Shown here piece by piece: positions 3,852 through 38,662 of a stretch of DNA of 64,000 nt. Source of the DNA: Bdellovibrionales bacterium (GTDB lineage: Bacteria > Bdellovibrionota > Bdellovibrionia > Bdellovibrionales > UBA1609); the NCBI GenBank assembly GCA_015163875.1, contig JAAOIH010000002.1, positions 17,574-81,573 on the forward strand. Reading direction: 5' to 3'. The position numbers were made by a program, and so were the translations under genes. Position 1 is the first letter of the stretch; every line of letters begins with the position of its first letter. The notes under the pieces are model-generated. The model made no database searches. It was not told the DNA's origin and saw only the letters and a program-made list of their open reading frames with translations.

Positions 3852-3862
3852 AATTAATTCTC

Positions 3863-9399: not shown

Positions 9400-10140
9400 T
9401 TGTTTATTTTTAGATTATTTTTTTTATTATTTTTTTTAAATTTTTTTCAAAGCCCATTAGTTTTTGCAAAAGATTTTTCTGTACCAAAACTAACTTCATC
9501 TGTTGTAGATAATGCTAATTTTTTGTCACAAACAACCAGCGATAGATTGCAAACAGTTTTTTCTTATTTATCACAAAAAGGCATAGCACAAATTGCATTT
9601 TTAAGTGTTAAAAGTTTACAAGAAGAAAGCATAGAAGGTGCAAGTATTAGAGTTGTAGAAAAATGGAAACTTGGCGACAAAGAAAAAGACAATGGAATTT
9701 TATTATTTTTTGCTAAAAAAGAGAGAAAAGTTCGTATCGAAGTAGGGCAAGGATTAGAGGGGTCATTAACAGACGCTAAATCTTCTAAAATAATTCGACA
9801 AGTTATTGTTCCGTTAATGAAACAAGGAAGCCCTGATAAGGCAATTTTGTATGGAGCATATTCTATTGTAGAAAGCATTAGCAACAAAACTACTGCCCAG
9901 CAATTATTTGGAAATTCTTTTGTTCCATATAAAAAAAAGAAAAAAAAGAAATCTTCTTTTATGTTTATTGTTTTTTTATTATTTTTTTTAATGGGAGGTA
10001 GGGGAGGCTTTTTTTCACTGTTTTTAGCATCTCAATTAGGCGGTCGCAGCTCTGGTTTTGGCGGAGGTGGTTTTGGCGGCGGAGGTTTTGGTGGAGGCGG
10101 GGGTGGCTTTAGCGGCGGAGGGGCATCTGGCTCTTGGTGA
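9400..10140 (+). CDS. TPM (YgcG-like) domain protein with Gly-rich tail
   Basis: VVDNANFL, WKLG..KDNGILL, RIEVGQGLEG, terminal FSGGGASGSW; standard lemA-TPM-TPM operon; TTG start. Confidence 0.9.
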   Translation: MFIFRLFFLLFFLNFFQSPLVFAKDFSVPKLTSSVVDNANFLSQTTSDRLQTVFSYLSQKGIAQIAFLSVKSLQEESIEGASIRVVEKWKLGDKEKDNGILLFFAKKERKVRIEVGQGLEGSLTDAKSSKIIRQVIVPLMKQGSPDKAILYGAYSIVESISNKTTAQQLFGNSFVPYKKKKKKKSSFMFIVFLLFFLMGGRGGFFSLFLASQLGGRSSGFGGGGFGGGGFGGGGGGFSGGGASGSW

Positions 10141-21073: not shown

Positions 21074-21077
21074 AAAT

Positions 21078-21285
21078 GCACACCTGACCCCCAAACCAAA
21101 CCAAACCCCCTTTGAGGGTCAGGTACACCCCCCTCTAAACAGGGGCCTGCCGACCAAGTCAAACCAAACCCCCTTTGAGGGTCAGGTACACCCCCCTCTA
21201 AACAGAGGCCTGCCGACCAAGTCAAACCAAACCAACTTTGAGGGTCAGGTACACCCACTAAATAGGGGTGTACCTGACCCTCAAA
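21078..21285. repeat. REP-like locus A: degenerate half-site, three 63-bp-spaced arms and a terminal palindrome
   Basis: TTTGAGGGTCAGGTACAC at 21111, 21174 and 21237; reverse arm at 21268-21285; degenerate reverse arm at 21078-21095. Confidence 0.93.
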
Positions 21286-21287
21286 TT

Positions 21288-22685
21288 TTACCTAAGAATA
21301 ATATTGGCAATATCAACAACAATAAATAAAAATGATACCTGCACAATGGATTTATATGCCCCAATAGTTATTGGTATAATTGATAGGGGTATTTTTGTTT
21401 TAGAATTGTAATTAAAATTTTTTGTAGAAGCTGTTAGTTTAGAAGAAATATTTTCTATTCTGCTCATATTAAAATTTAAATCATAAATAGTTTCCCTGAG
21501 CATTTCTCTCACTTTAGAATGAGAGTCCCATGTTTTGCTAGTTTTTAATATCACGGCTAAAACATATTCAATATCGTAAATAAATTGTTGTATTTTATCG
21601 GAAGTTTTTCTATTTTCTGTTTTTATAAAATTCTCATAACTTTTATGATATGTATTTAGATTATCAAGCAAAGGCTTAAAGGTGTTACTCATCATTTCTG
21701 CCCCTATTGTGGTGCGAAGCTTCCATAAAATATTAGAAATCATCATAGAGTTTTCATGATTCATTCCAGAACGAATATCCAACAAAGATGTACGCCTATT
21801 TACATCACCTTCATGTCGCGCAACCCTTTCTTCAATATTGCGAAGAGGTGTATTGTCTTTATTAATTTTACCTATTTGTGGATTATTTAACATATGAGCC
21901 GCTCCAAAATCTGCAATGGCTTCATTCATAAAACTTTTGTTAACATAGGCAGGTATTGTGTAAGTGCTATGCATTAACGAATGAGTTCTTTCGTGGTACA
22001 GTATTGATTCACTCTCTACTGCGGCTTTATTACCGAACAAAGGATTCATAACAATAACTGTCTTTAGCTTTGGCGACCAGATATTTATTACAGGAGGGCC
22101 TATTGAGTGTGGACCACTTGCTGATGAATTATTAACGATTACACGGGTGATACTAGGTTTTTTAAATCCCATTTTCATCATAGTTTTATCAAAACTATCC
22201 AGGTTATTTGCTATTTTTTGTCCTATTTTTTTGGAATTTTTTAAATCTCCAACAACTTCTACAGTTTTATTATTTTTTGCTAATAAGCGATAAGGCCTAA
22301 CAAGAAGTTGTGCCCAAGATGTGTCTAGTAACATGACTCTAAGAACATCCTTAAGCTCTGTTAAAACTTCTTTTACAGATAAAGATGTAGTATCTTTTTC
22401 TAGTTTTGCCCAATTCGCAATTTCATCTTCCTTATATATTTTGTCTTTTTTTAATCGACTATTAGTAAATTTTATAGATACCTGTTCAGCACTTTGATGA
22501 AGTTCTCTAAATTTCAAAGTTTGAATTACTGGGTCACCAGCAAGTTGCACTCTATATGTTTCTCCTTTTTGAAAAGAGCTTTCTTGTAAAGAAGAAAACA
22601 ATGAAGAACAGACTGGCTGAGCTTTCCCTTTAATAGGAAAATATAAACTAATAGTACAAAGAATTATAATTAAGTATTTAAACAT
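21288..22685 (-). CDS. Secreted gluzincin metallopeptidase (thermolysin M4 / fungalysin M36-like)
   Basis: Signal peptide from MFKYL (ATG 22685; ORF track starts at 22706); HERTH (HExxH), NEAIAD third zinc ligand, PLRNI, HENSMMISNILWKLR; hydrophobic C-terminus. Confidence 0.72.
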   Translation of the reverse strand: MFKYLIIILCTISLYFPIKGKAQPVCSSLFSSLQESSFQKGETYRVQLAGDPVIQTLKFRELHQSAEQVSIKFTNSRLKKDKIYKEDEIANWAKLEKDTTSLSVKEVLTELKDVLRVMLLDTSWAQLLVRPYRLLAKNNKTVEVVGDLKNSKKIGQKIANNLDSFDKTMMKMGFKKPSITRVIVNNSSASGPHSIGPPVINIWSPKLKTVIVMNPLFGNKAAVESESILYHERTHSLMHSTYTIPAYVNKSFMNEAIADFGAAHMLNNPQIGKINKDNTPLRNIEERVARHEGDVNRRTSLLDIRSGMNHENSMMISNILWKLRTTIGAEMMSNTFKPLLDNLNTYHKSYENFIKTENRKTSDKIQQFIYDIEYVLAVILKTSKTWDSHSKVREMLRETIYDLNFNMSRIENISSKLTASTKNFNYNSKTKIPLSIIPITIGAYKSIVQVSFLFIVVDIANIILR

Positions 22686-22750
22686 ACTTCTTAATGTGCA
22701 AGGCATAATCCAGTTATTGTTTCATAGTAAAACACTTTATAAAAAGTAAC

Positions 22751-22900
22751 TAACTTTGAGTAACTTTGAGGGTCAGGTACACCCCCCTCTAAACAGGGGC
22801 CTGCCGACCAAGTCAAACCAAACCAACTTTGAGGGTCAGGTACACCCCCTAAATAGGGGTGTACCTGACCCTCAAAAATTCTCAAAAATTCTCAAAAGTT
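22751..22900. repeat. REP-like locus B
   Basis: Arm at 22765; 49-bp palindrome at 22828-22876; 10-bp micro-duplications TAACTTTGAG x2 and CTCAAAAATT x3 (third copy one mismatch) at the ends. Confidence 0.93.
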
Positions 22901-22935
22901 TAGACACTTATAAGTGCCTGTATTTATTTTGAATA

Positions 22936-22981
22936 TTGACTTTTGTGCATATCTGTATTCTATATACAGATATGCACAAAA
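22936..22981 (+). promoter_or_regulatory. TTGACT -35 box plus an 18-bp-arm perfect inverted repeat covering the ATPase start codon
   Basis: TTTTGTGCATATCTGTAT-TCTAT-ATACAGATATGCACAAAA (22941-22981); ATG at 22972 has no Shine-Dalgarno sequence. Confidence 0.65.
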
Positions 22982-24126
22982 TAAAAAGAGATATCTTATC
23001 CTTAGTTGAAAAAAAGCTACAAAGTAATCCAGTAGTGGCTTTGCTAGGGCCAAGACAATGTGGAAAATCGACTTTAGCAAAAGAGTATTTAAAAACTAAA
23101 AAAGATACTGTTTATTTAGATTTAGAAAACGATCAAGATCGTTTTAAAATTAAAGATATTTGGGAATTTTTTAATTACCATAAAGAAAAATTAATTTGCC
23201 TTGATGAAATTCAAAGATTGCCAGAAATTTTTTCACAAATTAGATCTTATGTTGATCAATCTTCTGGCAATGGAAGGTTTCTTATTTTGGGGTCAGCATC
23301 TAGAGATTTAATTAAACAAAGTTCTGAAACATTAGCAGGAAGAATTTCTTATATAGAGATGGGGCCTTTTTCTTATAAAGAATTACAAGACACTCAGTGG
23401 TTAAATGAACATTTTATTAGGGGATCTTTTCCCCGTAGTGTTTTGGCCAAAAGCCATGAAGAAAGTTTTGATTGGCGTAAAAATTACATAAGAACTTTTT
23501 TAGAAAGAGACATTCCAAATTTGGGTTTTCGAGTCCCATCCTCTGTGTTAAATAATTTTTGGCACATGTTAGCTCACTTACAGGGGCAAATTTTAAATGC
23601 CGACAAATTAGGAACTTCTTTAGGAGTGACGGCACATACTGTAAAAAATTATATACATATTTTAAAAGAAACTTTTATGATTAGATGCCTGCCTGCTTAT
23701 TTTTTTAATACAAAAAAAAGACTAATCAAGTCTCAAAAAATATATATTCGAGATACTGGAATTGTTCATGCTTTGTTAAATTTAGATAGTATAGATAATT
23801 TATTAGGGCACCCTGTATATGGTTTTAGTTATGAAACTTATGTTATAGAAACTTTAATAAATCTTTATCCTCAACATGAAGCTTATTTTTTTAAAACCGC
23901 AAAAGGGGAAGAGATTGATTTAGTATTAATTAAAGGACAACAAAAAATAGCTTTTGAAATTAAAGCCTCTGCAGTGCCAAAAATAGAAAAAGGTTTTTGG
24001 TCTGCATTGGATATTTTAAAACCTGATGAAGTTTGTATTATAGCTAAGGTAGATAAAGATTACCCAATACAAAATGGAGTGATGGTTAAAAGTCTTTCTA
24101 GCGTTGTTTCTAGCACTAAAGTTTAG
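22972..24126 (+). CDS. AAA_14 ATPase with DUF4143 C-terminal domain
   Basis: LLGPRQCGKST, LDEIQ, LGSAS, ETLAGR, K.YIRDTG, YETYV, EEIDLV..FEIK; start placed at MHKIK (ORF track starts at TTG 22936). Confidence 0.9.
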   Translation: MHKIKRDILSLVEKKLQSNPVVALLGPRQCGKSTLAKEYLKTKKDTVYLDLENDQDRFKIKDIWEFFNYHKEKLICLDEIQRLPEIFSQIRSYVDQSSGNGRFLILGSASRDLIKQSSETLAGRISYIEMGPFSYKELQDTQWLNEHFIRGSFPRSVLAKSHEESFDWRKNYIRTFLERDIPNLGFRVPSSVLNNFWHMLAHLQGQILNADKLGTSLGVTAHTVKNYIHILKETFMIRCLPAYFFNTKKRLIKSQKIYIRDTGIVHALLNLDSIDNLLGHPVYGFSYETYVIETLINLYPQHEAYFFKTAKGEEIDLVLIKGQQKIAFEIKASAVPKIEKGFWSALDILKPDEVCIIAKVDKDYPIQNGVMVKSLSSVVSSTKV

Positions 24127-24164
24127 TTTAAATAACTGGACTAACAGAGGCACACAGGTCTAGC

Positions 24165-24230
<66 letters not shown>

Positions 24231-24274
24231 TGTGTATTATATTTATAGAAGCAAAAATAAACACAGGAAATTTT

Positions 24275-25549
24275 ATGAAATTTTTAGCACTACTATTAAT
24301 ATTTGCACTAAGTTCATGCAATGGCATGAAGTGGAAAACTTCAAAAAATACTAAACCAACTAGAAAAATAAGTTTACTAAAGAGAGATATTTCTTCAAAT
24401 AAAGGAACCTCTACAGCCACAACTAAAATAATTTCTGGTGTCGAATGCTATTTATCAGTAGAAAGAAATGGCAAAATAATAAGAAGAAAAAAATTTCGAG
24501 AGCCATTAGGAACTGAATTCCATTTTTCTTCTAAAGTTGAATCTGGTGAATTTTATGCAATGATAGACCATAACCAAGAACATAGTAGAATTGCAATAAG
24601 CTCAAAGGCTGAAGACCTTTCATGGTCGTTTATTCATAATGGTAAAAAAGCATCTACTATTAAGGTTGCAGATTGTAGGAAAATAAAAAGAAACAAATTA
24701 GGAGCTGTGATTCGCTGTTTCCCTTCTGGGCAAGGGAGTACAAAAATTACGAAGAAAATTTCTTTTGATTGTGAAAGGAACAATAATGATGATTCTGTGT
24801 ATACAAAGCATATTGATTCTTTCTATGCAACAGGTGAAAACTCTCAGGTGAGGAGGGCTCTTGAGATGCTTTCCAAAGTGCCTATCTCACTGTCCTTTAG
24901 AGGAAGAGGGAGTAGTAAGATTTATAAAGTTGATAATCACAATTTAGTTTTATTGAGATATTATAAGACCCCATATCCGGAAAAGACTTGGCAAAAAGAG
25001 GGAAATTATGCGAGTGGCATTTATGAGGTTACTGGAGGAAAATTTTGTGATGAAAACAGCGGGCTGTTCTGTACTCCTTCATATGGAGTGCCTATCTCCA
25101 TTTGTGTGGCCAGAAAATCTGGTGTTTTGGTCCCTAATGACGTGGAGAGCGGCAGAACTAAAAAAACAGTCGCAGACAGTCTTGTCAATTATTGGTGGTA
25201 TAACATGGTGTCAAACCTTAAGTCAGGATTAAAAAAAGTTTTTAACTACAATAAAACAGCATCTTCAAAACAACCAAAACTAGGAACACTACGACTACTT
25301 AGATATTCAAAAAACTTAGATGACGCCTTAAAATCTTCTTATGATAACGATACGCGACTTCTACCTGAAAAAAACACTCCCCATGCACTAAGTGGCAATT
25401 ATTATACAAAGTACGCCGGTGTCAGCGTTGGAGTGCCGAAATGCCGCAATGGCGTGTCAGTACTTATGGAACATTCACAAGTAGAAAAATTAGAAGTAGT
25501 GTTTGATAGACGATATGACTATAACAAAAATAGGAATAAGAAAAAGTAG
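24275..25549 (+). CDS. Uncharacterised lipoprotein, visibly more GC-rich than the host DNA
   Basis: ATG 24275 after AGGAAA; MKFLALLLIFALSSC lipobox; no family recognised (ORF track starts at TTG 24230). Confidence 0.7.
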   Translation: MKFLALLLIFALSSCNGMKWKTSKNTKPTRKISLLKRDISSNKGTSTATTKIISGVECYLSVERNGKIIRRKKFREPLGTEFHFSSKVESGEFYAMIDHNQEHSRIAISSKAEDLSWSFIHNGKKASTIKVADCRKIKRNKLGAVIRCFPSGQGSTKITKKISFDCERNNNDDSVYTKHIDSFYATGENSQVRRALEMLSKVPISLSFRGRGSSKIYKVDNHNLVLLRYYKTPYPEKTWQKEGNYASGIYEVTGGKFCDENSGLFCTPSYGVPISICVARKSGVLVPNDVESGRTKKTVADSLVNYWWYNMVSNLKSGLKKVFNYNKTASSKQPKLGTLRLLRYSKNLDDALKSSYDNDTRLLPEKNTPHALSGNYYTKYAGVSVGVPKCRNGVSVLMEHSQVEKLEVVFDRRYDYNKNRNKKK

Positions 25550-25592
25550 TTTGCTTCTTATTCTCATTGCTATGATGGTGCATACATACTTA

Positions 25593-25620
25593 GTGTACCT
25601 GACCCCCAAACAAATCTGAT
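25593..25620. repeat. REP-like locus C (single reverse half-site)
   Basis: GTGTACCTGACCCCCAAACAAATCTGAT. Confidence 0.85.
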
Positions 25621-25650
25621 TGGCCTACTTGCCAATACTTTCTTTGTTCG

Positions 25651-25680
25651 TATATATCTCTATTTAAATAGAGATATATA
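25651..25680. promoter_or_regulatory. Perfect 30-bp palindrome 3 bp upstream of the resB-like start
   Basis: TATATATCTCTATTTAAATAGAGATATATA equals its own reverse complement; function not established. Confidence 0.6.
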
Positions 25681-25683
25681 ATC

Positions 25684-30907: not shown

Positions 30908-30996
30908 GCTTTTATTTTTGAAATAAGTTTTATTTTTGAAAAAAGTTTTATTTTTGAAAAAAGTTTTATTTTTGAAAAAAGTTTTATTTTTGAAAA
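30906..30996. repeat. 18-bp tandem repeat (AAGTTTTATTTTTGAAAA, 5 copies) starting in the groEL stop codon
   Basis: Read directly. Confidence 0.92.
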
Positions 30997-31012
30997 AATA
31001 AAAATAATCTCC

Positions 31013-31047
31013 AAAAAGACAGACCTGCCGGGTCTGTCTTTTTTTTT
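31013..31047 (+). terminator. Intrinsic terminator of groESL
   Basis: AAAAAGACAGACC-TGCCG-GGTCTGTCTTTTT followed by a T-run. Confidence 0.85.
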
Positions 31048-31157
31048 GAGGATCAGATTTGAGGGTCAGATTTGAGGGTCAGGTACACCCCCTAAATAGG
31101 GGTGTACCTGACCCTCAAATCAAACAAAATTAACTTTGAGGGTCAGGTACATATAAA
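31045..31157. repeat. REP-like locus D
   Basis: 13-bp degenerate duplications (31045-31070), 49-bp palindrome at 31071-31119, half-site at 31135-31151. Confidence 0.93.
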
Positions 31158-31158
31158 T

Positions 31159-31196
31159 TTGATTTCAAAGAATAAATAGTGTACATTGTACACTAT
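31159..31196 (+). promoter_or_regulatory. Toxin-antitoxin promoter and operator
   Basis: TTGATT-N17-TACATT; palindrome ATAGTGTACA-T-TGTACACTAT (31176-31196) covers the -10 box and the ATG at 31195, implying a leaderless mRNA. Confidence 0.7.
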
Positions 31197-31461
31197 GGAG
31201 CAGTTTAATTGGGATGATGAAAAAAATAATTTATTAAAAGCTAGCAGAAACATGAGCTTTGAACAGGTTTTAGATTGTTTTGAAAATGGTAATTTTTTTG
31301 GGGTTTACGAAAATCCTAGTAGTAACTTTTCTCATCAGGAAGTGTTTTTAGTTAAAATAAATGACTACCCTTGCATAGTTCCTTTTACAAAAAACAAAGA
31401 CGAAATATTTTTAAAAACAATAATACCAGATAGGCGGTTTAAACAATTTATCAAGGAGTAA
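31195..31461 (+). CDS. BrnT-like (DUF497-type) toxin
   Basis: MEQFNWDDEKN.L..SRNMSFE, YPCIVPF, FLKTIIP typical of this RNase toxin group; start placed at ATG 31195. Confidence 0.8.
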   Translation: MEQFNWDDEKNNLLKASRNMSFEQVLDCFENGNFFGVYENPSSNFSHQEVFLVKINDYPCIVPFTKNKDEIFLKTIIPDRRFKQFIKE

Positions 31462-31464
31462 GTT

Positions 31465-31794
31465 ATGAATAAAAAACTAAACAAGAAAGAAAAAGAAATT
31501 GCTGATAATTTTGTAAGTGGTAAATTTAAAAAAAAAGCTTCTTCAAGTAATTTTAAAGCTATGGCACAAAAAACAAAAGAATCTAGAATAAATCTTCGAC
31601 TGCAAGTTAATGTATTAGAGTATTTTCAAAAATTATCACTAAAAGAAGGAATACCATATCAAACACTTATAAACAGTGTGCTTTTTAAAGTGGCCTCAGG
31701 ACAAATGATAGAAGGTAAGTTTTCTGACTTTGCAAAAACCATTGAAGAGTTAAAAAAGCAAATTTCTAATATGAATCGCAAAAAGCAAGCCTAG
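31465..31794 (+). CDS. BrnA/CopG-like antitoxin
   Basis: RINLRL...EGIPYQTLINSVL ribbon-helix-helix signature, directly downstream of the toxin. Confidence 0.82.
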   Translation: MNKKLNKKEKEIADNFVSGKFKKKASSSNFKAMAQKTKESRINLRLQVNVLEYFQKLSLKEGIPYQTLINSVLFKVASGQMIEGKFSDFAKTIEELKKQISNMNRKKQA

Positions 31795-31818
31795 TAAATT
31801 TTGTTAGTTTGTCCAAGA

Positions 31819-31949
31819 CTTGAGTATCAGATTTGACTTGAGGGTCAGGTACACCCCCTAAATAGGGGTGTACCTGACCCTCAAATCACTCAAATCAAAC
31901 AAAATTAACTTTGAGGGTCAGGTACATATAAAATAGGTACATATAAAAT
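31819..31949. repeat. REP-like locus E
   Basis: Palindrome at 31838-31885, half-site at 31910-31926, 9-bp (CTCAAATCA) and 15-bp (AGGTACATATAAAAT) micro-duplications. Confidence 0.93.
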
Positions 31950-31972
31950 TTCAGTTAGAAAATCAGATGCAC

Positions 31973-33367
31973 TTAAAAAATCTTTCCGGGATTTAAGATA
32001 TTGTTTGGGTCGAATATTTTTTTTATTTGTTTCATTATATTTATTTCTTCTTCTGTTTTGCTAAATTGTAAATAATCTTTTTTTACAAGGCCGACACCGT
32101 GCTCTGCAGAAACACTGCCTTTGTATTTTTTTATTAAATCAAATATTTGTAAATCTAATTTTTTATATGCAGCCATAAAACTTTCATCACTTTCGCCATC
32201 AGGCTTTAATAAATTAATATGCAAATTTCCGTCGCCGATATGTCCAAAATAAATTAGTTCATAATTTTTTGGCAGTAAAGAAATCAACAGCTGCAAGTCT
32301 TTTATAAATTCTTCTAAATTAGACAAGCGAACTGCAACATCATTTTTGTGGGGACTTCTATAATGTATTGATTCCGAAATATTTTCTCTTAAATCCCAAA
32401 TAAGTTTATCTTGATCCTTGTTTTGCGAAATTGTTCCGTCTACAATTAATTCTTTTTCTAAACTTTCTTCTAAAATTTGCATTAAAACTTCTTCGTCTGT
32501 TTTATTTTGTACATCTACCTCTGCGGTAACATAAAAATCATGTTCACAGCTTATTGGGCAATTTTTTTTTGAGTGATCTAAACTATATTTTAAAGCTTCT
32601 TTTGTAAAAAACTCAAATGCAATTAAATTTGTTTTGTTTTTGTATTGAAAATAAACTTTTAGCAAATTACTAATACTAGAGCTTGCTAATAATAAACTAA
32701 TATTTTTTTTTGCAGGGGAGGTTAGCTTAACAGTAACTTCTGTAATAATACCAAGACTTCCTTCGCTTCCTATAAACAGCTGACTTAAATCATAACCAGT
32801 TGCATCTTTTACAAGTGCATTTTTAAGATGTAAAATTTCTGCATTTCCAGTTACAACTGTAAGGCTTGTAATCCAATCTCTAGTATTTCCATATCTTAAA
32901 ACTTTAATCCCACCTGCATTGGTTGCAACATTTCCACCAATGTGGCTAGATCCAGTTGCTGCAAAATTAATAGGATAAATTAAGTTATGCTTTAATGCCT
33001 CTTCTTGAATATGTTGAGTAATAACTCCTGCCTGACAAAATAAACTTTGTTCTTCTGGAATAAATTTAAAAATTTTATTCATTTTTTCTAAAGAAACTAT
33101 CACTTCGTTTTTTGTTGCAGTTGCCCCTGCACTTAAACCAGTTCTGCCGCCAGAGCTTAGCAAGCCAATGTTATATTTTTTAGCTAAGCTTATAATACTT
33201 TGCACCTCTTTTGTGGAATGCGGAAACAATACAAGCGACCCGTTACCGATAAAATCTTTAGACCTGTCACTTGAATAAATTTTTATATCATCTACGCTAG
33301 TTAAAATTTGCTTTTCTGTTAAGCAAGATTTAATATCTTTAAAAAAATTATCTTTATTTTTTTGCAT
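31973..33367 (-). CDS. FAD-linked oxidoreductase (D-2-hydroxyacid dehydrogenase / GlcD-like)
   Basis: GGRTGLSAG, IGGNVATNAGG, GSEGSLGIIT, FGHIGDGNLH, SAEHGVG, DPNNILNPGK. Confidence 0.92.
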   Translation of the reverse strand: MQKNKDNFFKDIKSCLTEKQILTSVDDIKIYSSDRSKDFIGNGSLVLFPHSTKEVQSIISLAKKYNIGLLSSGGRTGLSAGATATKNEVIVSLEKMNKIFKFIPEEQSLFCQAGVITQHIQEEALKHNLIYPINFAATGSSHIGGNVATNAGGIKVLRYGNTRDWITSLTVVTGNAEILHLKNALVKDATGYDLSQLFIGSEGSLGIITEVTVKLTSPAKKNISLLLASSSISNLLKVYFQYKNKTNLIAFEFFTKEALKYSLDHSKKNCPISCEHDFYVTAEVDVQNKTDEEVLMQILEESLEKELIVDGTISQNKDQDKLIWDLRENISESIHYRSPHKNDVAVRLSNLEEFIKDLQLLISLLPKNYELIYFGHIGDGNLHINLLKPDGESDESFMAAYKKLDLQIFDLIKKYKGSVSAEHGVGLVKKDYLQFSKTEEEINIMKQIKKIFDPNNILNPGKIF

Positions 33368-35567: not shown

Positions 35568-35861
35568 ATGTTTAAAGACAATAGCGAAGCATCAAACTTT
35601 ATGCAGATTAGCGAAGGTCAAAGAAAAAAAGAAAGAGCTAAGGCCAGAGATTTAAGACATAGCTCTTGGTGGAAAAATAAATTACAAGATGCTATATGTT
35701 ATTATTGTGATTTAAAAATAAATAAGGAATTTTTAACAATGGATCACAAAGTTCCTATTTCAAAAGGTGGAAAAAGTACAAAAAATAATATAGTATTGTG
35801 TTGCAAGGATTGTAATACAAAAAAAAATCAAAGCACGGCGGCCGAAATTGCATATAAATAA
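35568..35861 (+). CDS. Small HNH endonuclease
   Basis: CYYC, MDHKVPISKGG, NIVLCCKDCN. Confidence 0.9.
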   Translation: MFKDNSEASNFMQISEGQRKKERAKARDLRHSSWWKNKLQDAICYYCDLKINKEFLTMDHKVPISKGGKSTKNNIVLCCKDCNTKKNQSTAAEIAYK

Positions 35862-35872
35862 GGAACAACTTA

Positions 35873-37477
35873 ATGTCAAAAATTAAAACAAGCAGCACGG
35901 CAGAATATTTTTCAAAAAATTTACAACAAGTAGGTTTTTCCTCTCCATTAAAAGCTGTGTTAACAACTTTAAAAGAGGCAGTAGATAATTCTTTAGATGC
36001 TTGCGAAGATAGTGGAATTTTACCTCACATAAAAATTAATATTAGTAAAATAGGAAAGGGCTCTTCTAGAAACACAGATTTAATTAAAATAAAAATAGAA
36101 GATAACGGACCAGGATTATCTGTTCAAGATTTACCTGCAGTTTTTGGTGAGTACTTAGCCTCTTCTAAATTTGGAAAAGGACAATGTTCGCGAGGTCAGC
36201 AGGGCATTGGTATTTCTGCAGCAACTACTTGGGCACAATTAACTAATGCAACTGGAGTTTGCGTAGAAAGTAAAACTAAAAATATGCAACAAGCAGTATC
36301 TATGGTTATTGATGTTGATATTAAAAACAACAAGGGTCTTGTTAAAAAAAAAACAAGCATAAAATGGAATAAAAAAAAACACGGACTAAAAGCTTCTTTT
36401 GTTATTGATGGAAGGGTGCAATTAAATGGAGACGGTGGATTAATTACTTATTTAGAGGGCACATCTTTAGTAAATCCACATTTAGAATTAGATTATACTT
36501 TGCTAGAAAACGACCCAGTAAGTGTAAAAAGAGTTAGCGATGTAATCCCAAAAGTACCTCCACCAACTTTGCCGCATCCTCATACTATGAAGCTTGGTGA
36601 ATTTATTACTTACTCTCATTTGTATGGAAAAATAAGTTTGTCCAAATTTTTAAAAACAGGATTTTCTAGAATATCAGATGCTACAATTAAAGAAATTTCT
36701 AAAAAAAATAAAATAAAATCTTCACTACTTAACCTTTCTCTTCCAAAGCTATTAGATTCTGATTTTAAAAAAGTGTTTGAAGCTTTGCAAGAAGCAACTT
36801 TAATGAACCCTCAAACAAATAGTGTTTTAATTATTGGCGAAAAAGCTTTAGAGCAAAGCATTCATCGAATAGGAGATGTAGATTTTTTTAGTGTAGTTAC
36901 ACGCAAGCCAAGAATTTGTGATTTTAAACCAGTGGTAATTGAAGTTGCCATGGCAAGACTTAATGACACAAAAGGAAAAGATGAAAACTCTTTGCAGCTT
37001 TTAAGATTTGCAAACAGAGTTCCTTTGCAATTTGATAAATCTTCATGCGCTCTTACAAAAGCTGTTGAAAGTGTAAATTGGAAGGCTTATGGATTGCAAC
37101 AAAGTAAAAACAGCGTTCCTAGTGGTCCTTATGTTTTGGCAATTTCTATGACATCTCCATTTATAAAATTTAAAAATGCCTCTAAAGAAACAGTTGATGC
37201 CAGTGAAGAACTGGTAGAAGAAATTCGCAAAGCACTAATTCAAACAGGACAAAAATTAGGTCGATATATTAGAAAAGAAAAAAAAGAATTTGATTTAGAA
37301 AGAAAAATTCAGCATATCGAAAAATTTGCTCCAATTTTAGTAAATGCTTTAGTTAAAATTACTAAAGCTCCTATTAAGCGCAAAAAAAAAGCAGAGTTAG
37401 GTTTAATGAAAATTTTAGGCAGAGATGCAAAAAATGCAGAAGCAGAGTTAACTCAAGCTAAAGAAAAATTAAAATAA
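35873..37477 (+). CDS. top6B: DNA topoisomerase VI subunit B
   Basis: GHKL motifs KEAVDNSLDA, EDNGPG, SSKF...SRGQQGIG; transducer RFANRVPL and FKNASKE. Confidence 0.93.
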   Translation: MSKIKTSSTAEYFSKNLQQVGFSSPLKAVLTTLKEAVDNSLDACEDSGILPHIKINISKIGKGSSRNTDLIKIKIEDNGPGLSVQDLPAVFGEYLASSKFGKGQCSRGQQGIGISAATTWAQLTNATGVCVESKTKNMQQAVSMVIDVDIKNNKGLVKKKTSIKWNKKKHGLKASFVIDGRVQLNGDGGLITYLEGTSLVNPHLELDYTLLENDPVSVKRVSDVIPKVPPPTLPHPHTMKLGEFITYSHLYGKISLSKFLKTGFSRISDATIKEISKKNKIKSSLLNLSLPKLLDSDFKKVFEALQEATLMNPQTNSVLIIGEKALEQSIHRIGDVDFFSVVTRKPRICDFKPVVIEVAMARLNDTKGKDENSLQLLRFANRVPLQFDKSSCALTKAVESVNWKAYGLQQSKNSVPSGPYVLAISMTSPFIKFKNASKETVDASEELVEEIRKALIQTGQKLGRYIRKEKKEFDLERKIQHIEKFAPILVNALVKITKAPIKRKKKAELGLMKILGRDAKNAEAELTQAKEKLK

Positions 37478-37489
37478 AAAGGAAGATCT

Positions 37490-38662
37490 ATGGCTAAACT
37501 AAAATCTGTTTTTAAAATGAATCACGCACAAAAAGATGTTGGCAAATTAGCCCACGCACTGTGTGATACAATGTTAAAGGATTTAGAAGGAGCCAAAAGG
37601 CCAACACTTGAAGCAGTTAAATGTTCTTTAGATAATGCTATTTATAATTCTAAAGTTGGTTTTTTTACACCAGGGGACAAAAGGGTAAAAACAGAATTAA
37701 ATGTATCTTCTGTTCAAAAAATGGCCAGAAGTGTTTTTTTATTAGATATTTTTTTAGAAAATTTAAAAGCAGGCGGTGTTAATACAAAAAGAGAAGTTTA
37801 CTACAGAGCAAAAGGTTGGATAAAAAAAGATCCTAAATTGCGACCTATTGATTTTGAAGTACAAGAAGAAAGCGACTCTATTATTAGTTTTTTGTGTGAT
37901 GCTTTGGAGGTTTACAGAGAAGAATTAAATTGTGTTGCAAACGACAGGGGCGGACAAACTTATTCTCAACAATTAATTGTTACAGAAAACCTTCCAGATG
38001 GAACAAAAGCACATATTGATTTAGGAAGTTTAGGTACAACTCCATTTCAACCTAAAAATAGACCACAAAGTTTTTCATTAAAAATGAAATCAAAAATTAA
38101 ATTTTGTTTAGTTGTTGAGTCAGAGGGTACAGCCAACACTTTGGTTACTAACGGAATTACTAAAAGAAATAATTGCATTGTTGTTGGTGCGCAAGGTGTC
38201 CCTAGTAACGGCGTAAGAGGTTGGGTAAAAACTATTCAAGATCAATTAAAAATACCAGTATTTTTTTTCGGTGACCTTGATGCATATACTTTACAAAATA
38301 TTTATAGAACTTTAAAAAGCGGATCTGCTGCAAGCTTGATTAGAAACAAAAATTTTTGCGCACCAGATGTAAAATTTTTGGGAGTGTTGCCAGAAGATGT
38401 AAAAAAATATGATTTAGATTGTTATTCTGTTAAAGAAAAAGACGCATCAGAGGCAAGGTCATTAAAAAAAGCTAGAGACGCTTTGCAAAATGATCCATTT
38501 TTTAAAGATGCAAAAAATAAAAAACTATCACAAGTATTAAAATGGTTATTAAAAAATAAAATTCGTTGCGAACAACAGGCTTTATTTTCTGTAGACCCAA
38601 AAGACATAACAGTTCCTGAAAAAATTATTTTAGATAAAATTAAAAATAAAATATATATTTAA
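37490..38662 (+). CDS. top6A: DNA topoisomerase VI subunit A (Spo11-like)
   Basis: TKREVYY (catalytic Tyr region), TOPRIM VVESE and GDLD, C-terminal CEQQAL; adjacent to top6B. Confidence 0.9.
   Translation: MAKLKSVFKMNHAQKDVGKLAHALCDTMLKDLEGAKRPTLEAVKCSLDNAIYNSKVGFFTPGDKRVKTELNVSSVQKMARSVFLLDIFLENLKAGGVNTKREVYYRAKGWIKKDPKLRPIDFEVQEESDSIISFLCDALEVYREELNCVANDRGGQTYSQQLIVTENLPDGTKAHIDLGSLGTTPFQPKNRPQSFSLKMKSKIKFCLVVESEGTANTLVTNGITKRNNCIVVGAQGVPSNGVRGWVKTIQDQLKIPVFFFGDLDAYTLQNIYRTLKSGSAASLIRNKNFCAPDVKFLGVLPEDVKKYDLDCYSVKEKDASEARSLKKARDALQNDPFFKDAKNKKLSQVLKWLLKNKIRCEQQALFSVDPKDITVPEKIILDKIKNKIYI

Follow-up and report, generated by a model that had tools for sequence, protein, structure and literature searches.

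What explains a toxin-antitoxin (TA) gene pair that lies between two near-identical direct repeats, immediately downstream of the groEL terminator? This question is raised by a 64,000-bp stretch of DNA from a Bdellovibrionales bacterium (assembly GCA_015163875.1, contig JAAOIH010000002.1, positions 17,574–81,573 of the forward strand), which is referred to here as the window. The original prediction for this locus, made from the sequence alone, was that the pair had been inserted as a cassette in the manner of integron cassettes or pdif modules, independently of a neighboring "cassette 1" with a different linker. The results of this study favor, with moderate confidence, a different explanation, in which the locus is accounted for by the dynamics of a family of repetitive extragenic palindromes (REPs) around an ordinary acquired TA module.

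Flanking repeats and the enclosed TA pair

The two predicted copies were confirmed by direct reading and by a repeat search, in which 31072–31157 and 31838–31932 matched at 86 of 86 aligned bases. The repeat search of the window also reported the direct families D3 (44 nt at 100%) and D5 (60 nt) as well as the inverted hairpins I9 and I11. The left copy of 86 bp consisted of a 49-bp palindrome, the linker TCAAACAAAATTAAC, a half-site that is a third core and the sequence TATAAA. The palindrome was made of the 16-nt core TTGAGGGTCAGGTACA, the 15-nt center CCCCCTAAATAGGGG and the inverted core. When folded as single-stranded DNA, the hairpin had a perfect 23-bp stem and a 7-nt loop (-28.5 kcal/mol, z = -11.7). 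The left hairpin, which is similar to a REP doublet forming a hairpin (REPIN), spanned 31069..31121 (unstranded, two inverted REP cores, I9). It was followed on the + strand by the linker (31120–31134), the single core (31136–31151) and TATAAA, which together occupied 31120..31157 (D3). With a maximum of three mismatches, the core was found 14 times in the window, compared to an expectation of 0.18, and the linker was found genome-wide only in the two flanks of the TA pair.

The right copy of 95 bp was the same as the left one plus nine extra bases. Its hairpin (31834..31888, unstranded, I11) was identical to the left hairpin, and its tail (31886..31950, + strand, D3 and D11) contained an imperfect duplication (31886–31894), the linker (31895–31909), the core (31911–31926), TATAAA and a partial copy, GGTACATATAAAAT, at 31935–31950. 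The original prediction had described the nine extra bases as a 9-bp duplication. They are present, but TCACTCAAA at 31886–31894 matched the preceding ACCCTCAAA at only 7 of 9 positions and is therefore an imperfect copy. From the end of the element to the stop codon of the oxidase gene that comes next were 23 bp. To the left of both hairpins, the homology continued as degenerate partial heads, or "stutters" (repeat family D6, + strand). The left stutter (31042..31071) consisted of two degenerate partial REP heads, TTTGAGGATCAGA and TTTGAGGGTCAGA, in front of the full hairpin, and its degenerate counterpart on the right (31816..31837) was CTTGAGTATCAGATTTGAC. Stutters similar to the left one were also found at other REP clusters.

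That the repeats enclose a BrnT/BrnA-like TA pair with a promoter and an operator of its own, as had been proposed, was supported by Pfam matches and by a conserved operator palindrome. The brnT-like toxin gene (31186..31461, + strand) starts either with TTG at 31186 (91 aa) or with ATG at 31195 (88 aa). The brnA-like gene for an antitoxin of the CopG/ribbon-helix-helix (RHH) type (31465..31794, + strand) starts 3 nt after the toxin stop codon; in homologs the two genes overlap. The toxin matched BrnT_toxin (PF04365) with 21.8 bits, below the cut-off of 34.5 bits, as did all of its 15 homologs tested (15/15 below the cut-off; best E = 3.7e-6). Sequence and profile searches of PDB with the toxin matched no solved structure. 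The AlphaFold (AF2) model of the toxin family had a mean predicted local distance difference test score (pLDDT) of 90, and its leading Foldseek matches in PDB were nearly all of the RelE/YafQ/ParE/HigB type (template modeling (TM) scores of 0.37–0.63 for the top 21; E ≥ 0.011). The toxin is thus predicted, from this model, to have a RelE/ParE-type fold. The antitoxin scored above the cut-off for CopG_antitoxin (28.8 vs. 28 bits) and below that for BrnA_antitoxin (25.2 vs. 26.1 bits), and its homologs included a "CopG family antitoxin" of Halobacteriovorax (57% identity). As far as the sequence can tell, the pair fits BrnTA in gene order (toxin first), intergenic gap (3 nt) and gene sizes.

The predicted promoter and operator of the TA pair spanned 31159..31195 (+ strand), with a -35 hexamer TTGATT (31159–31164), a 17-nt spacer and a -10 hexamer TACATT (31182–31187). 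These hexamers were read by eye and have 8 of 12 matches, which is below the threshold of the promoter scanner. The palindromic operator TAGTGTACATTGTACACTA (31177–31195) overlapped both the -10 box and the start codon. In an alignment of this locus with three homologous loci (A1), the palindrome GTGTACA(N)TGTACAC and the -35 element TTG.T.T were invariant in all four, and the homology started at the -35 box and stopped at the antitoxin stop codon. These limits indicate that the TA module is self-contained and that the repeats lie outside it. The operator (GTGTACA-T-TGTACAC, 31177–31195) and the top of the REP stem (GGTACAC...GTGTACC, 31082–31108) have the hexamers GTACAC and GTGTAC in common. 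Because TA homologs without REPs possess the same operator, this overlap is probably due to chance.

If the pair had traveled with the hairpins, its closest homologs should be found next to them. The closest TA homologs were 57–85% identical and located on plasmid-like, chromosomal or contigs like those of integrative and conjugative elements (ICEs). Those with toxin identities of 85, 77, 70, and 64% were in the contexts of a Replic_Relax-type small replicon, an FtsK/ICE-like region, an integrase and a chromosome, and in these four contexts neither the REP core nor flanking direct repeats were found, an outcome that the original prediction itself had named as counting against it. More distant homologs were also found on plasmids of Calothrix and Piscirickettsia. 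The TA module is independent of the hairpins. It is probably an ordinary, BrnT/BrnA-like type II module that was acquired horizontally, with its own promoter and operator, and it is located in a variable slot.

A REP-type family and a RAYT-type transposase

The assembly that holds the window is 1.29 Mb in size, with 29% GC, 50 contigs and a completeness of 93%. The core TTGAGGGTCAGGTACA was found 76 times in about 22 clusters genome-wide, whereas a reversed control pattern was not found (0 hits). The clusters contained cores in both orientations, which form hairpins, or in some cases tandem direct cores only, and they had varying linkers and truncated heads at their edges. All clusters were located between open reading frames (ORFs) or at ORF ends. 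The hairpin head was TTGA-GGGTCAGGTACA, and neither GTAG nor CGTC was present. Truncated heads were tallied for a fixed cleavage point; five ended at GGGTCAG, too few to interpret. An Rfam scan of the locus returned only sub-threshold chance matches to generic hairpin and miRNA models. Moreover, in a pattern search of 40 relatives, including a genome of the same genus (G001), none carried the core (0/40). Several clusters were solitary and sat between core genes, whose identities (tig, clpP, priA, fabH, and a xerD-like gene) were read only from their translations. This is typical REP behavior, and the family is not confined to the borders of accessory genes.

In 16-mer scans of genome contigs and metagenome contigs, the matches listed were single ones due to chance, and the only multi-copy contigs among them came from the metagenome assembly JAAGOD01. 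As these contigs are 99.8–99.99% identical to this genome or bridge its gaps, the scans have no bearing on other hosts. Two of them, JAAGOD010048165.1 and JAAGOD010047984.1, belong to the same population and bridge gaps of the assembly, from the end of contig C22 to the end of contig C2, with one reaching the start of contig C37. Additional REP clusters, with long and symmetrical arrays of stutters, are present on them. Breaks in the assembly thus have REP clusters as a main cause, and the 76 cores in about 22 clusters are a minimum. Taken together, the flanks of the TA pair are clusters of the bacterial interspersed mosaic element (BIME) kind, from a species-specific REP/REPIN-type family that belongs to the host system and not to the TA module. 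That they are of the same family as the repeats of cassette 1, with a different linker, had been predicted correctly as far as the identity of the repeats is concerned.

The genome also contained one gene for a transposase similar to REP-associated tyrosine transposases (RAYTs), located at positions 2096-2671 of contig C35 (- strand). Its product of 189–191 aa is an HUH/Y1 protein that exceeded the cut-off of Pfam Y1_Tnp (57 bits) and scored 65 bits against NCBIfam REP_Tyr_transpos vs. 19 bits against transpos_IS200. It was the sole Y1 transposase gene of the genome and was present in a single copy. In an alignment with its homologs (A3), H60, H62, and Y120, which represent the HUH histidines and the Tyr region, were invariant. 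No RAYT homolog was found in a search of G001, the same genome in which REPs are absent. Since REPs and RAYT are found together in one species and are both missing from its sister, their co-occurrence is lineage-specific.

The closest homologs of this RAYT were 236 aa long and 53–57% identical, and some were labeled Methylococcales. Two of them were flanked by inverted repeats of 23–27 nt, TCAAGGGGTCAGCCAGCTTGATT (TCAAGGGGTCAGCC...), which have the heptamer GGGTCAG in common with the REP core. These repeats were located on contigs of Methylococcales-type metagenome-assembled genomes (MAGs), at 3860–3975 of L263 and at 2449–2471 and 3197–3219 of L262, and the downstream copy of the inverted repeat encodes the last residues of the RAYT homolog (NQAG, followed by the stop codon). 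Upstream of one homolog were about eight tandem partial heads, CTGAGGTCA, much like the stutters found here. Many of the homologs were on contigs of about 1 kb, similar to multi-copy elements of the insertion sequence (IS) type. The REP family of this genome is linked to the RAYT. Read from the sequences, the repeats may be the multiplied ends of a RAYT/IS200-like element, of the REP/REPIN type but atypical for their lack of a GTAG or CGTC head.

Bracketed accessory genes and the groEL-oxidase slot

An all-against-all comparison of the clusters was conducted, in which a bracket was counted as clean when the two direct composites around its cargo matched each other better than any other cluster. 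Four such brackets were found. In addition to the TA pair (31072 and 31838 of the window; 86/86 aligned bases plus one indel), they enclosed the 472-aa protein of cassette 1 on C22 (flanks of 113 bp, 98%), a HipBA pair on C26 (C26:8431–10025; 194 bp, 93%) and the RAYT gene itself on C35, whose composite flanks were 95.6% identical over 183 bp. On contig C24, four related clusters at a spacing of 0.8–1.4 kb formed an array that separated two genes for DUF4143 AAA ATPases (within C24:3000–5440) and one for a small Cys-rich secreted protein. The bracketed genes were on both strands, and the orientation of the cargo relative to the composites was not fixed. The REP clusters thus fence accessory genes, but solitary ones also occur between core genes. 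A third DUF4143 gene was found after cassette 1, at 22936–24126 of the window.

To what extent the cargo is shared was assessed with G001, a MAG of the same genus that carries the NCBI label Pseudobdellovibrionaceae. A concatenated query of the 472-aa protein, BrnT, BrnA, HipA, HipB, one DUF4143 ATPase, the Cys-rich protein and a lipoprotein found none of these proteins in G001 but did recover the neighboring enoyl-CoA hydratase (90% identity). The TA pair belongs to the accessory genes. The HipA/HipB-like pair and the DUF4143 genes were likewise absent from the sister genome, and other members of the family have many DUF4143 paralogs. At the neighboring island, which is bounded by REPs and 4.5 kb long here (21074–25683 of the window), G001 has a spacer of 154 bp between the enoyl-CoA hydratase gene and resB (G001:C27 1034–1187). 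This spacer contained two copies of the GC-rich motif GGACGGACCC(A/T)AAAGGGGC. With 3 hits, the motif was rejected as a genome-wide family of G001, and it could be the remnant of an older repeat.

The layout of site, cargo and site is superficially similar to a cassette array, also with regard to the four clusters on C24, and the predicted insertion was by integron-like recombination (attC × attI) or by pdif/Xer-type recombination. The attC site of an integron, which marks the boundary of the cassette, forms an imperfect palindrome that has extrahelical bases and a GTTRRRY core, and its cargo is promoterless and in one orientation. A pdif module holds its cargo between oppositely oriented 28-bp XerC-spacer-XerD sites and is found on plasmids. 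Here, the 23-bp stem is perfect and possesses neither extrahelical bases nor a GTTRRRY core, the TA pair is preceded by a conserved promoter and operator of its own, and bracketed genes are on both strands. Nor do direct composites of 86/95 bp with 23-bp arms and a 7-nt loop resemble alternating XerC/XerD sites, and they are found on the chromosome, with groEL on one side and a core oxidase gene on the other. Repeats of this family are also arranged in direct tandem arrays or stand by themselves between core genes, and a cognate HUH transposase is present in the genome. A genome search for PF00589 found two recombinases of about 295 aa, the size of Xer proteins, on other contigs and no IntI-like third one; at a completeness of 93%, a missing integrase gene is not fully excluded by this search. 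One Xer-like gene (295 aa) adjoins a REP cluster: it lies beside the hairpins at 9778–9852 of contig C48, in a divergent spacer towards a fabH-like gene (C48:8811–9852), which is a point in favor of Xer-type insertion. Both the integron and the pdif readings fail the defining features of these systems and were rejected, and insertion by either route is extremely improbable. The mechanism proposed in the original prediction is thus not supported, in the absence of IntI and of attC features and given the cargo's own promoter and a dispersed REP family.

The brackets also bear on a second alternative, in which the REP-bracketed unit is a cargo-carrying, non-autonomous element mobilized in trans by the RAYT. 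Single-stranded DNA would be cut at both hairpins, the TA pair with one composite would leave as a single-stranded circle, and it would be reinserted beside another REP head, either by the "peel-and-paste" route of IS200/IS605 or in the way in which pairs of miniature inverted-repeat transposable elements (MITEs) move their cargo. In vitro, TnpA-REP cleaves single-stranded circles more than 400 nt from the bound REP and catalyzes strand exchange (PMC3333891), which is consistent with such a process. The near-identical direct composites around the TA pair, HipBA, the 472-aa gene and the RAYT gene, the related clusters that part the DUF4143 genes of C24, the absence of all tested cargo from the sister genome, its "empty" 154-bp spacer at the neighboring island and the IS-like behavior of the close RAYT homologs, with many contigs of about 1 kb and inverted repeats, are also consistent with it. 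However, neither the genome search nor the Logan contigs provided a second copy of the TA pair, an empty allele or junction evidence. Moreover, the variable orientation of the cargo, the TA homologs that occur elsewhere without hairpins and the RAYT, which has no C-terminal tail of the kind found in its homologs, argue against mobilization in trans, and gene conversion between neighboring clusters could give the same picture. Mobilization of the unit by the RAYT is therefore regarded as unlikely.

In a broader form of this idea, which we consider distinctly unlikely, the hairpin clusters would function as the ends of a gene-cassette system driven by an HUH enzyme, the RAYT, in a reduced Bdellovibrionota genome. 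Any gene between co-oriented composites would then be excised as a single-stranded circle and reinserted by another REP head, for which the likelihood is just as low. It is equally doubtful that such a system, different from integrons and from Xer/pdif, would cover the TA pairs, the ATPase genes, the peptidase-like gene and the RAYT gene.

The slot itself is bordered on the left by the intrinsic terminator of groEL (31013..31048, + strand), which has a 13-bp stem including an A/T extension, followed by a T-run (-13 kcal/mol, z = -5.7). As the original prediction had noted, the left repeat overlaps this terminator: the left stutter begins inside the T-run. On the right is the convergent gene of a core neighbor, the flavin adenine dinucleotide (FAD)-linked oxidase (31973..33367, - strand), which is 83% identical to its ortholog in the same genus. 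The adjacency of groEL and the oxidase gene was found only within the genus, where G001 is the one other genome that has it. In G001, the 3' end of groEL is followed by an analogous terminator, a different ORF of 116 aa with a signal peptide, a bidirectional terminator and the oxidase gene. Examination of this junction in relatives, as had been suggested, thus revealed a variable slot with neither TA pair nor REPs in G001, but no strictly empty site. G001 was rejected as an empty site, the 116-aa ORF being an alternative occupant of the slot. Different from its G001 ortholog, the oxidase gene of the window has no terminator of its own, and the first stable structure downstream of it is the right REP hairpin.

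An 18-bp AT-rich unit, TTTTATTTTTGAAAAAAG, is present in five copies in tandem between the groEL stop codon and the terminator (30910–30999); this array is absent at that place in G001. Logan contigs from SRR11301536 and SRR11301537, the two runs in which this population is present, break at 30954, inside this array, and at 31903, inside the right repeat. Exact look-ups of the TA proteins for variants in the population found nothing. Further downstream in the window, a small gene with an HNH domain lies upstream of genes for topoisomerase VI B- and A-like proteins (35568–38662; Pfam families are listed for these genes), a gene set that is uncommon in bacteria.

The variation of the slot between the two species of the genus could also be explained if REP clusters are landing pads. 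The TA pair together with one composite, as circular or linear DNA, would have been integrated by RecA into an identical composite after the groEL terminator, leaving the direct repeats behind, and the reverse crossover would delete the pair. The flanks of 86 bp are identical at each aligned base and long enough for RecA, and their linker is private to the two of them. There is also anecdotal precedent in Escherichia coli, where TA genes and REPs alternate in the folA-apaH spacer (PMC3184786) and where a REPtron site is replaced by hicAB (PMC3333891). Nevertheless, the incoming DNA would need a repeat that is specific to this genome, and the TA homologs found elsewhere carry none. This explanation can therefore account for transfers inside the genome or population alone, of which no evidence was found, and we consider it quite improbable.

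For these reasons taken together, REP dynamics around an acquired TA module remain the preferred explanation. The two clusters would be copies of one another, because their linker is found nowhere else in the genome. The second composite may have originated either by RAYT-type cleave-and-rejoin copying of one BIME into the nearest free spacer or by gene conversion between neighboring clusters, anchored on the cores that they have in common; in both cases REP-cluster dynamics, and not a dedicated cassette recombinase, would be its source. TnpA-REP of E. coli binds REPs, cuts single-stranded DNA in inverted REPs and in linkers, even hundreds of nucleotides away, and rejoins it, and excision of BIMEs as single-stranded circles and their amplification have been modeled from this activity (PMC3333891). 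Several results weigh against this explanation. The RAYT lacks a C-terminal tail of about 45 aa that its closest homologs possess (A3), which makes its activity uncertain, and its score is below the NCBIfam equivalog cut-off (80 bits). In classical REPs, the foot of the hairpin carries the tetranucleotide GTAG or CGTC (PMC3733652, PMC3333891), which the REPs of this genome do not have. Furthermore, in 4 of 4 clean brackets both flanks are each other's best match, and the sister genome lacks all of the bracketed genes that were tested. Such regularity goes beyond what would be expected from passive spread of REPs and fits a unit that is inserted or excised.

The repeats may also have functional roles at this site. 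Because the right hairpin is the first stable structure after the terminator-less oxidase gene, the hairpins may, by analogy, serve as 3'-end structures or insulators for the transcripts of groEL, the TA operon and the convergent oxidase gene. Classical REPs serve in this way. The 86-bp direct repeats would make the TA pair deletable by RecA, and the TA pair may in turn stabilize the slot by selecting against its own loss.

In Proteobacteria, REPs and their RAYTs have been characterized in detail, for the most part as isolated hairpins between genes. Here, a REP family without a GTAG head fences nearly every recognizable accessory gene of a tiny Bdellovibrionota genome with near-identical direct copies. 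The RAYT gene is fenced like the accessory genes, and the sister species has neither REPs nor RAYT nor any of the cargo tested. If the brackets reflect the action of the transposase, they would be a clear case of RAYT-type enzymes handling genes as well as hairpins. If they do not, REP clusters are documented here as markers, and possibly as recombination substrates, of variable slots that hold TA pairs.

Comparison with known systems

Similar to integron cassettes and the pdif modules of Acinetobacter, the locus has an arrangement of site, cargo and site, and TA pairs are frequent cargo of both. Different from them, no integron integrase was found, its architecture is neither attC- nor dif-like, its cargo has its own promoter, and its repeat is genome-wide with an HUH partner. 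The enclosed pair is similar to BrnT/BrnA (BrnTA of Brucella abortus; PF04365 and PF14384) in its toxin-first order, toxin of about 90 aa with a predicted RelE/ParE-type fold, CopG/RHH antitoxin of about 110 aa and palindromic operator. However, the toxin matches PF04365 only below the cut-off (22 vs. 34.5 bits), and its activity is putative.

Two identical direct non-autonomous repeats around a gene other than a transposase gene are also found in MITE pairs, such as those flanking blaGES-5 (integron mobilization units, IMUs) and an Acinetobacter integron (PMC3184786). These have terminal inverted repeats (TIRs), target-site duplications and DDE transposases (PMC3184786), whereas the repeats of this study are hairpins with no target duplication and the candidate enzyme is of the HUH type. 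The closest RAYT homologs, which are flanked by inverted repeats with GGGTCAG, are similar to TIR-associated tyrosine transposases (TIRYTs) and TIRtrons (PMC3733652), to IS200/IS605 and to the MITE-like derivatives of the latter, palindrome-associated transposable elements (PATEs). Different from TIRYTs and IS200/IS605, the transposase gene of this genome is single-copy, and the ends are multiplied without it and have non-transposase cargo between them.

Finally, comparison with REP systems identified both differences and similarities. Different from a classical REP, the single core of 16 nt does not form a hairpin on its own and is also found in tandem direct arrays, truncated heads form stutters, and over half of the clusters bracket accessory genes as near-identical direct copies. 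Different from REP/BIME-RAYT systems, the RAYT falls short of the equivalog level, and its nearest relatives are IS-like with terminal inverted repeats. Similar to the REPtrons and REPINs of E. coli, Pseudomonas, and Stenotrophomonas (PMC2817692, PMC3116915, PMC3333891), however, the family consists of a short GC-rich extragenic palindrome in high copy number, here in an AT-rich genome. Also similar to REP/BIME-RAYT systems, its members occur in both orientations with variable linkers, are species-specific and are accompanied by one single-copy Y1/HUH gene that is flanked by the repeats.

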